Part shown: piece by piece, positions 21,216 to 21,351 of the stretch
How the letters are laid out: every line of letters starts with the position of its first letter
How positions within the stretch are numbered: position 1 is the first letter of the stretch
Assembly (NCBI GenBank): GCA_037189585.1
Contig: JBBCJA010000018.1
Location: 887-64,886, forward strand
DNA from: Selenomonadaceae bacterium
Lineage (GTDB): Bacteria; Vulcanimicrobiota; Xenobia; Xenobiales; JADMJV01
DNA length: 64,000 bases
Direction of reading: 5' to 3'
Notes under the pieces: generated by a model
What the model saw: only the letters and a program-made list of their open reading frames with translations
Told to the model about the DNA's origin: nothing
Databases searched by the model: none
Program-made: the position numbers and the translations under genes

Positions 21216-21351
21216 GAAGCGGCGGTCTCGCTAGGAGATTCCGGAGGCCTCGCTGGCTGTCGAAGAGCGCTCCCGCTCCGTTAAGGGTGGGCTCTTCGAG
21301 AGCCAACCCGCCTGACCGGAGGTACGGGTGCAAATCCCGTCCGCTTCACCA
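21216..21351 (+). ncRNA. 136-nt tRNA-like RNA with tmRNA-TLD-like topology and an encoded ACCA 3' end
   Basis: The acceptor is a 7-bp perfect stem, gaagcgg (21216-21222)/ccgcttc (21341-21347). Adjacent helix: cggtc (21223-21227)/gaccg (21314-21318). T arm: acggg-tgcaaat-cccgt (21324-21340), with G53-C61, C56 and A58 kept. It ends with A-CCA (21348-21351). The interior is a 14-bp hairpin (21254-21305) rather than D and anticodon arms. Confidence 0.5.

Follow-up and report, generated by a model that had tools for sequence, protein, structure and literature searches.

A tRNA-derived, putatively Y-RNA-like RNA in a Ro60-like gene cassette of a Selenomonadaceae bacterium

The stretch of DNA analysed here (the window) comprises 64,000 nucleotides (nt) from an assembly filed as Selenomonadaceae bacterium (GTDB lineage Bacteria; Vulcanimicrobiota; Xenobia; Xenobiales; JADMJV01; GenBank GCA_037189585.1, contig JBBCJA010000018.1, positions 887 to 64,886, forward strand). 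Positions 21216-21351 of its + strand hold an element, called e1 below, which on the evidence of its sequence is a transfer RNA (tRNA) derivative: a tRNA frame in which the anticodon loop has been swapped for a long extension. Its structure is real and under selection, as judged from a small sample of five distinct sequences, and it lies 5' of a gene for a protein with a predicted Ro60-like fold, within a cassette of four conserved protein genes. At the family level e1 is best described as a tRNA-derived, Y-RNA-like non-coding RNA in a new type of Ro60-like cassette. Its parts are as follows.

21216-21351, + strand: e1, tRNA-derived RNA without an anticodon loop (fold, homologues, covariation and covariance model R1)
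21216-21222, + strand: 5' strand of the acceptor stem, GAAGCGG, pairing with 21341-21347 (7 pairs, invariant in five sequences)
21225-21239, + strand: D-like hairpin, GUCUC-GCUAG-GAGAU (pair 12:22 compensatory)
21240-21320, + strand: long arm of 81 nt replacing the anticodon arm (fold; 8 pairs changed on both sides)
21324-21340, + strand: T arm, ACGGG-UGCAAAU-CCCGU, with G55 (fold; invariant in homologues)
21341-21351, + strand: 3' strand of the acceptor stem, CCGCUUC, discriminator A (21348) and genomic CCA (21349-21351) (sequence; CCA in 5/5 homologues)

Structure, conservation and tRNA ancestry of e1

The 136 nt of e1 fold into a cloverleaf (RNAfold), with identical minimum free energy and centroid structures and thus a single dominant structure at -71.1 kcal/mol, against an average of -54.2 +/- 4.1 kcal/mol for dinucleotide shuffles (z = -4.1). 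The acceptor stem (GAAGCGG/CCGCUUC) is the perfect 7-bp helix of the original prediction, and is followed by a 2-nt spacer (CG) and by a D-like arm with a stem of 5 base pairs (bp; GUCUC/GAGAU) and a loop of 5 nt (GCUAG) that has no GG, the G18G19 of canonical tRNAs. At the position of the anticodon stem, UCCGG (21240-21244) pairs with CCGGA (21316-21320), but this 5-bp stem runs into an extension of 71 nt and not into the 7-nt loop of a canonical anticodon arm. From base to tip, the arm is made of UCCGG/CCGGA, of AGGC/GCCU (4 bp) and of a bulged 5+9-bp hairpin (21254-21305), with GA preceding CCGGA on the 3' side (GCCU GA CCGGA). A variable region of only 3 nt (GGU) leads to the T arm, whose 5-bp stem closes a 7-nt loop, UGCAAAU, with U54, G55, C56 and A58; this loop, which had been read in the same way before, departs from the canonical U54-U55-C56. 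The molecule ends as a canonical tRNA does, with a 7-bp acceptor, a discriminator base and a 3' CCA, and both the discriminator A and the encoded CCA are where they had been predicted.

Other parts of the original prediction had to be revised. It had a 14-bp hairpin at 21254-21305 in place of the D and anticodon arms, and one 5-bp helix spanning from the 5' strand of the acceptor to the T arm. The hairpin is present, but so is a D-like arm (21225-21239), and the supposed single helix is actually two, the D-like hairpin and UCCGG/CCGGA. Because a D arm is present, the layout is that of a cloverleaf with an extended anticodon arm rather than the P2 arrangement of transfer-messenger RNA (tmRNA), to whose tRNA-like domain the topology had been likened.

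The likeness to that domain is not without substance: e1 also has an open acceptor ending in ACCA, a T arm, and a long helix where the anticodon stem belongs, and a miniature tmRNA-like molecule for ribosome rescue could be imagined on this basis. In tmRNA, however, P2 follows straight from the acceptor without a D stem, whereas the D-like hairpin of e1 even includes one covarying pair. As had been noted originally, there is no G3.U70 alanine identity pair (the pair 3-70 is A3-U70) and no tmRNA-style tag, no tag open reading frame (ORF) being found in e1. No pseudoknots are predicted in its 136 nt, ARAGORN and Rfam are both silent as to tmRNA, and the core of e1 aligns with ordinary tRNAs (see below). 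We therefore rejected a tmRNA identity for e1; a tmRNA-like role is effectively refuted by these sequence features, and we grant it next to no probability.

General RNA searches do not name e1. ARAGORN and Rfam (at gathering thresholds and at E <= 10) gave no tRNA or tmRNA call on 21216-21351, and between 20000 and 23000 no Rfam 15 family was found at E <= 0.1 besides tRNA, whose match lies not at e1 but at a second tRNA-like RNA described below (e2).

Homologues of e1 were sought with nhmmer on metagenome contigs that carry relatives of the 487-amino-acid (aa) Ro-like protein of the window (70-92% identity) in the same gene order (loci are numbered with the prefix L). The element was found in four further related metagenome lineages, which with the window makes five distinct sequences, the homologues measuring 135 nt (L082-84), 162 nt (L090/91), 168 nt (L085) and 256 nt (L092). 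Total length thus ranges from 135 to 256 nt and that of the arm alone from 80 to 201 nt, the apex of the arm being hypervariable in both sequence and length. Conservation starts exactly at G1, which is preceded by AU in 5/5 sequences, and stops exactly at CCA, with unalignable flanks on both sides. One more contig examined, L145, does not include the region upstream.

In the alignment of these five sequences, 97.5% of cells are paired, compared with 35-57% for structures slid by 1-3 columns, and 9 pairs show changes on both sides, compared with 0-2 in the slid controls. One of the 9 is in the D stem (12:22, from C-G to U-A), and the arm accounts for the other 8. No variation at all is seen in the acceptor and T stems, whose originally proposed pairing is found unchanged in all five sequences, and covariation is seen in every helix that does vary. 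The G.U pairs of the alignment are valid on the + strand only. CCA is encoded in 5/5 homologues, whereas tRNA-Pro (5537-5611), the sole housekeeping tRNA gene of the window, is without it; the CCA of e1 is therefore not a mere habit of this genome, insofar as a single comparison can tell.

The ancestry of e1 was examined with a covariance model of its core (model R1, apex trimmed, 119 positions) that was run on 93 sources. Within the window e1 is the sole match, and no copies of e1 were found in the 93 sources outside the five lineages; a scan of viral contigs with the 3' end of e1 gave no match either. With weaker scores, all 119 positions of the model align with ordinary tRNA or tRNA-like genes of 74-84 nt at cyanobacterial and myxobacterial loci, including those of the array at L031. 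In these alignments the arm of e1 is skipped, an anticodon loop of 8-9 nt standing in its place. As the core model aligns end to end with ordinary tRNAs, e1 is tRNA-derived.

The 3' half of e1 also fits a pattern found in tRNAs of long arrays, CCGGAG-N4-GGGTGCAAATCCC. A metagenome scan with this junction pattern (CCGGAGNNNNGGGTGCAAATCCC) returned 50 matches, none of them e1. When 17 such metagenome loci were run through ARAGORN, most were found to have genuine tRNAs, often in long arrays.

U at position 55 of the T loop is near-universal. In six metagenome arrays (L096, L097, L106, L110, L114 and L124) the pattern matches are tRNAs with the T loop UGCAAAU, that is with G55, and neighbouring tRNAs at L110 have further G55 loops, UGCGACU, UGCAACU and UGCGAAU (type UGCRAHU). 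A G55-type T loop is also seen in e1 and in part of the e2-type RNAs. In several tRNA or tRNA-like genes the T loop is interrupted by an inserted hairpin, as in GGGGUU[UCUCCUAACGGAGACGCUACGCGAA]CGACUCC; such insertions were seen at L003, L013, L025 (5' of the 66-aa gene, see below) and L093:3860-3920, and may be small dispersed repeats inserted in genes. A group I intron-containing tRNA was considered for e1 and rejected, the insert being just 71-190 nt long and a simple hairpin.

A tRNA gene that received an insertion in its anticodon loop could also be decaying and functionless. The tRNA ancestry of e1, its hypervariable apical length, its repeated loss or collapse in relatives (see below) and the hairpin insertions in other tRNA-like genes of these loci would all suit such a gene, but lineages in which the flanks cannot be aligned have the same acceptor stem, T arm, ACCA and U-1 without exception, 9 compensatory pairs are distributed over the D stem and the arm base, and the CCA has been retained. 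The covariation in particular makes a dead pseudogene unlikely, and we regard this explanation as a poor one.

The Ro60-like cassette and its second tRNA-like RNA

On the + strand of the window e1 is followed, in this order, by a gene for a 66-aa protein, by e2, and by Ro-like, OB-fold and ThiF/E1 genes.

21383-21583, + strand: 66-aa ORF, candidate ubiquitin-like (Ubl) or carrier protein (ends RPEAVYG-stop)
21598-21747, + strand: e2, second tRNA-like RNA, cloverleaf core at 21634-21703 (Rfam tRNA, 33.8 bits; fold)
21878-23341, + strand: Ro60/Rsr-like protein, 487 aa (AlphaFold2 model and Foldseek)
23348-24256, + strand: OB-fold protein, about 275-302 aa (predicted OB-fold domains)
24261-24896, + strand: minimal ThiF/E1-type adenylating enzyme, 211 aa (Pfam ThiF, 2.6e-29)

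The 487-aa protein was recognised by its fold. Its AlphaFold2 model (predicted local distance difference test score, pLDDT, of 75) shows helical repeats in the N-terminal region and a vWA domain after them, and the top Foldseek matches of this model, over the full length and with E values of about 1e-11, are Rsr of D. radiodurans (2nvo), Ro60 of Xenopus (1yvp, 1yvr and 2i91) and human Ro60 (9nep and 9nen). Isolated vWA domains come after these, at E > 1e-4 only. Pfam gave only weak vWA matches, and a sequence search against the PDB gave nothing, so that the comparison of folds alone worked. Judged by its model, the protein is a divergent homologue of Ro60/Rsr, with more than 2700 homologues and about 62% identity in cyanobacteria.

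Directly 5' of this gene lies e2, which has a full cloverleaf with a degenerate anticodon arm, and an acceptor stem extended by long covarying helices, as in Y RNA. Among close relatives it was detected wherever a locus covers its region, and sequence motifs related to it are seen in cyanobacteria. In the cassette it probably serves as the core Y-like RNA.

The 66-aa gene starts with ATG at 21383, and its Shine-Dalgarno sequence (AAGGAG) lies about 19 nt past the CCA of e1, as the original prediction had it. The length of the encoded protein is constant in 21 loci, as is its C-terminus, RPEAVYG-stop with an invariant glycine (Gly). A C-terminal Gly next to a linked E1/ThiF gene is the context expected of a Ubl protein or sulfur carrier, but no significant Ubl or beta-grasp match was obtained in Pfam, in a PDB profile search or with hhalign against ThiS and ubiquitin. 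The Ubl label is thus that of a candidate, which we only infer from the size of the protein, its terminal Gly and the linked E1. Pfam, NCBIfam and PADLOC were uninformative for this protein and for the 302-aa OB-fold protein, the latter of which has an invariant GICLSGxDxxFDL motif close to its C-terminus. The ThiF/E1 enzyme is also matched by NCBIfam and PADLOC E1 models, NCBIfam placing it near ThiF, MoeB and TcdA-type enzymes; the adenylating enzyme to whose proximity attention had been drawn originally therefore belongs to the same conserved cassette as e1.

Directly 3' of the E1 gene (24968-27511, + strand) is a gene for a peptidase U32 family protein with DUF3656, a family that includes RNA hydroxylation factors. 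Its synteny with E1 is kept in most close relatives (L082, L085, L086, L090, L092 and L145), L081 having other genes there. No U32 homologue was found by tblastn in the 80 genome loci described next.

A genome scan returned 80 loci, in which the cassette genes were mapped by tblastn. These loci are mostly cyanobacterial, with a few from Chthonomonadaceae, a Polyangiales metagenome-assembled genome (MAG) and an Actinomycetota MAG. All 80 carry the Ro-like gene, 71 of them with the 66-aa gene 5' of it, and most of those long enough have the OB-fold and E1 genes 3' of it, at widely varying spacing. The cassette of four genes (66-aa, Ro-like, OB-fold and ThiF/E1) is conserved. We found no description of a system combining Ro60, Ubl and E1 in the literature searched, although an earlier one may exist elsewhere, and the operon with e1, e2, the Ro60-like gene, the 66-aa gene and E1 is apparently undescribed.

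The cassette frequently keeps company with tRNA genes and their mimics. Most loci scanned have tRNA or tRNA-like genes on the same strand 5' of the Ro-like gene, some of them with stop or aberrant anticodons. In Nostocales, an RNA of 209 nt (GGGUCUG...CAGAUCC-A) ends 25-170 nt 5' of the 66-aa gene (L016, L017, L019, L020, L023, L024, L026 and others; for example, L020:3041-3250). Its frame is that of a tRNA, with acceptor stem and T arm and a D arm of canonical form, and its anticodon arm is enlarged into a junction that bears an inner tRNA-like module of the e2 type; CCA is mostly not encoded. This RNA is therefore a nested double tRNA mimic, built to the same design as e1.

One of these loci, on a plasmid of Leptolyngbya sp. 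BL-A-14 (L022), includes a tRNA array of more than 20 genes. Between its Ro-like and OB-fold genes, 3' of the array, lies an isolated 81-nt fragment of 23S rRNA (L022:8954-9034; positions 1078-1159 of the Rfam bacterial 23S model, 57.7 bits), which was seen in 1/13 loci scanned. We take these model positions to correspond to the GTPase-associated centre.

The octamer TGTAGTAT, which is the operator of TrcR (PMC10272220), occurs on the + strand within 1.5 kilobases 5' of the 66-aa gene in 53/71 loci (among L003-L080), often in two copies 11 or 41-42 nt apart, and its rate there is about 16 times that elsewhere in the loci. Members of the TrcR translational-stress regulon include the trn tRNA array and rtcB (PMC8421152). 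The enrichment of the operator 5' of the 66-aa gene ties the cassette to this cyanobacterial translational-stress regulon.

Possible roles of e1 and its loss in relatives

Ro60/Y-RNA particles have been conserved all the way from bacteria to humans, and what they do is only partly understood. The bacterial Y RNAs YrlA, YrlB and Yrn1 adjoin rsr, often with two per locus, and contain tRNA-like modules. The Ro60-like gene and the second tRNA-like RNA nearby point to a Y-RNA-type role for e1, and we put at about even the chance that it is a Y-RNA-like partner RNA of the Ro-like protein, excised in the manner of a tRNA.

Such an RNA would be transcribed within an operon RNA that comprises a promoter and an attenuator-like leader (see below), e1, the 66-aa gene, e2, and the Ro-like, OB-fold and E1 genes. 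Bacterial RNase P recognises stacked acceptor and T stems, a 3' RCCA and a U at position -1, and e1 presents all of these, with its 7 + 5 bp stack of acceptor and T stems, its ACCA and its U-1 in 5/5 homologues, which leaves the RNase P-type processing envisaged in the original prediction plausible. RNase P would free the 5' end at G21216 and 3' trimming would halt at the CCA (21351), the product being a stable L-shaped RNA unable to decode. Like e2 and like YrlA, YrlB and Yrn1, e1 could then serve the Ro60-like ring protein as RNA subunit or tether, its long arm acting as a protein-binding handle and its tRNA-like end recruiting tRNA-handling enzymes or mimicking their substrates. The Rsr site of bacterial Y RNAs contains the motif GNCGAAN0-1G (PMC4201824), and a sequence fitting this motif (GUCGAAG or GUCGAAUG) is found in the arm of e1 in 3/5 homologues.

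A number of observations weigh against a Y-RNA-like partnership. The GNCGAA-like motif is absent from the other 2/5 homologues and is not conserved in e2; a protein-binding motif common to e1 and e2 was sought and not found; and the curated Y-RNA covariance models of Rfam have no match at e1. The neighbouring Ro-like protein is very divergent, with no Pfam TROVE match and TM-scores of about 0.47. Behind the covariation of e1 there are only five distinct sequences, in which the acceptor and T stems are invariant. Also, e1 is not always there. In L081 and L147, which stem from different samples and are the closest relatives (Ro-like protein 92% identical), it has collapsed to a perfect palindrome, cATGAAGCGGCGGTACCGCCGCTTCATg; the 28-nt palindrome (CATGAAGCGGCGGTACCGCCGCTTCATG) lies at L081:2073-2100 and L147:146-173 and keeps only acceptor-stem sequences. 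At L088/89 the e1 site is cleanly empty, with the junction GTTCAT|TTCATCAC, and L093/94 are without e1 while the rest of the cassette is kept. All lineages without e1 retain e2 and the proteins. The function of e1, whatever its nature, is thus dispensable. Its collapse or absence in relatives that keep the cassette indicates that it is accessory and lineage-specific, and not an obligatory partner of E1.

The region upstream of e1 suggests another way of looking at it. A control region is proposed here, with the following parts.

20657-20945, + strand: candidate control region (conserved in L081, L088, L092 and L093)
20657-20685, + strand: sigma-70-like promoter
20745-20870, + strand: leader ORF of 41 aa, C-terminus GRKLGG[R/S]AT[G/D/S]-stop
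20901-20945, + strand: terminator-like hairpin with U tract

The frame and the C-terminus of the 41-aa leader ORF are conserved, its middle being variable, and the GRKLGG codons are able to pair with the 5' arm of the terminator-like hairpin. This arrangement suggests a candidate attenuator of the ribosome-dependent, translation-sensing kind, and attenuation at this place would suit a response to translational stress. Between this region and e1, the non-coding segment 20946-21215 (+ strand) is conserved, GC-rich and also present in L081, L088 and L093; it contains repeated GGGGGUGUCC / GGACACCC segments and a CCUCCGGGCG...CCCGGAGG helix.

With the conserved attenuator-like leader on one side, the Shine-Dalgarno sequence of the 66-aa gene on the other, and RNase P determinants of its own, e1 could be a cis-acting element for processing or stability: RNase P and 3' trimming would split the regulatory leader from the coding RNA and set a stable 5' end for the 66-aa mRNA, the released RNA being a by-product. 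The 28-nt palindromic hairpin found at the same spot in L081 and L147 could still protect or punctuate the mRNA. A processing signal, however, has no need of a long arm in which compensatory changes preserve the base, or of an encoded CCA, and L088 and L093 have nothing at the position of e1. Nor do homologues keep a constant distance between the CCA and the ATG of the 66-aa gene: it varies from about 32 to about 370 nt. The original prediction had made e1 the 5' leader of the Ubl gene; the two are on the same strand and probably co-transcribed, but with such variable distances and with the losses of e1 described above, e1 is not an obligatory leader of this gene. The cis-element explanation is the main rival of a Y-RNA-like partnership, with which it is compatible rather than exclusive; as an account of e1 it is possible but on the unlikely side.

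The presence of an E1-type enzyme invites a third explanation, in which e1 is a substrate of the chemistry of the cassette, through transfer of the Gly to the CCA adenosine or to an aminoacyl group, or through RNA thiolation by a thiocarboxylate. TtuB/TtuC and Urm1/Uba4 provide a model for the thiolation version, with the 66-aa protein as the sulfur carrier. The encoded and conserved CCA of e1, which tRNA-Pro of the window does not have, would be accounted for in this way, as would the invariant membership of ThiF/E1 and the Gly-ended 66-aa protein in the cassette; the Ro-like ring and OB folds are predicted RNA binders, and some of the enzymes to which E1 is near (ThiF, MoeB and TcdA types, according to NCBIfam) act in RNA modification pathways. 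Yet some relatives retain E1 and the 66-aa protein although their e1 is gone or has collapsed, the analogous cyanobacterial RNAs are mostly without an encoded CCA, no rhodanese, PP-loop or E2-like domains were detected with Pfam, NCBIfam and PADLOC, and the 66-aa protein gave no beta-grasp match in the searches described above. We consider it very unlikely that e1 is such a substrate. In a wider form of the same idea, the CCA of e1 and the open-acceptor frames of cyanobacteria would accept the E1-activated Gly of the 66-aa protein as a protein-RNA ester, or be thiolated by a sulfur relay, while being held by the Ro60-like ring and the OB-fold protein, all as part of a translational-stress response. 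The repeated loss of e1 weakens any use of its CCA by the Ubl/E1 pair, and this scheme is a long shot.

Comparison with known systems

With the Y-RNA-like proposal in mind, we compared e1 with other systems in which tRNA-like folds occur. The likeness to the long tRNA arrays of trn type (Santamaria-Gomez et al. 2021, PMC8421152; TrcR regulon, PMC10272220) lies in the tRNA frame, the UGCAAAU T loop and the CCGGAG-N4 junction, and homologous cassettes adjoin such arrays or sit inside them (for example, at L022), 3' of TGTAGTAT operators. Unlike the array tRNAs, e1 has no anticodon loop and cannot decode, is a single gene, and has a D loop of 5 nt without G18G19. Plant mitochondrial t-elements and the mascRNA of MALAT1 are, like e1, tRNA-like folds within a longer transcript, the ends of which could be set by RNase P and 3' processing, but they are eukaryotic or organellar, whereas e1 has an encoded CCA, an arm under structural selection and a Ro60-like protein in its operon.

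Much of the interest of e1 lies in the cassette to which it led. A divergent relative of Ro60, missed by Pfam TROVE, with thousands of homologues especially in cyanobacteria, is consistently wired there to an E1, a Gly-ended mini-protein and an OB-fold protein, and is accompanied by tRNA mimics and genuine tRNA genes in varying combination. The locus opens a way to test the purpose of the tRNA-like module of Y RNAs, as well as a possible coupling of Ubl/E1 chemistry to bacterial RNA surveillance. As for e1, it would be a clean case of a tRNA gene re-tooled, with its ends and elbow kept and its decoding loop turned into a handle.

The bacterial Y RNAs (Chen et al. 2014, PMC4201824; Wang et al. 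2018, bioRxiv 10.1101/312249) are the closest parallel to this proposal. As in those systems, e1 is located 5' of a Ro60-type gene on the same strand (the Ro60/Rsr-like gene at 21878-23341, with the caveat that it has no Pfam TROVE match), and there are two RNAs at the locus, e1 and e2; known Rsr loci have at least two Y RNAs 5' of rsr, made from one precursor, and YrlA of M. smegmatis is cleaved by RNase P and given a CCA end (PMC4201824). With YrlA-type RNAs e1 shares a tRNA-like module with T and D arms and a long bulged helix. The operon of e1 differs from Y-RNA loci in that it adds the Gly-ended mini-protein, the OB-fold protein and E1, and is without an RtcB/RtcA context. The topology, finally, is opposite. 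The paired ends of YrlA form the Ro-binding stem with GNCGAAN0-1G, and its acceptor-like stem is closed by a loop, whereas the ends of e1 form an open acceptor stem with an encoded CCA, the motif is internal, and it is the long helix that is closed. Topologically, e1 is a circular permutation of YrlA.

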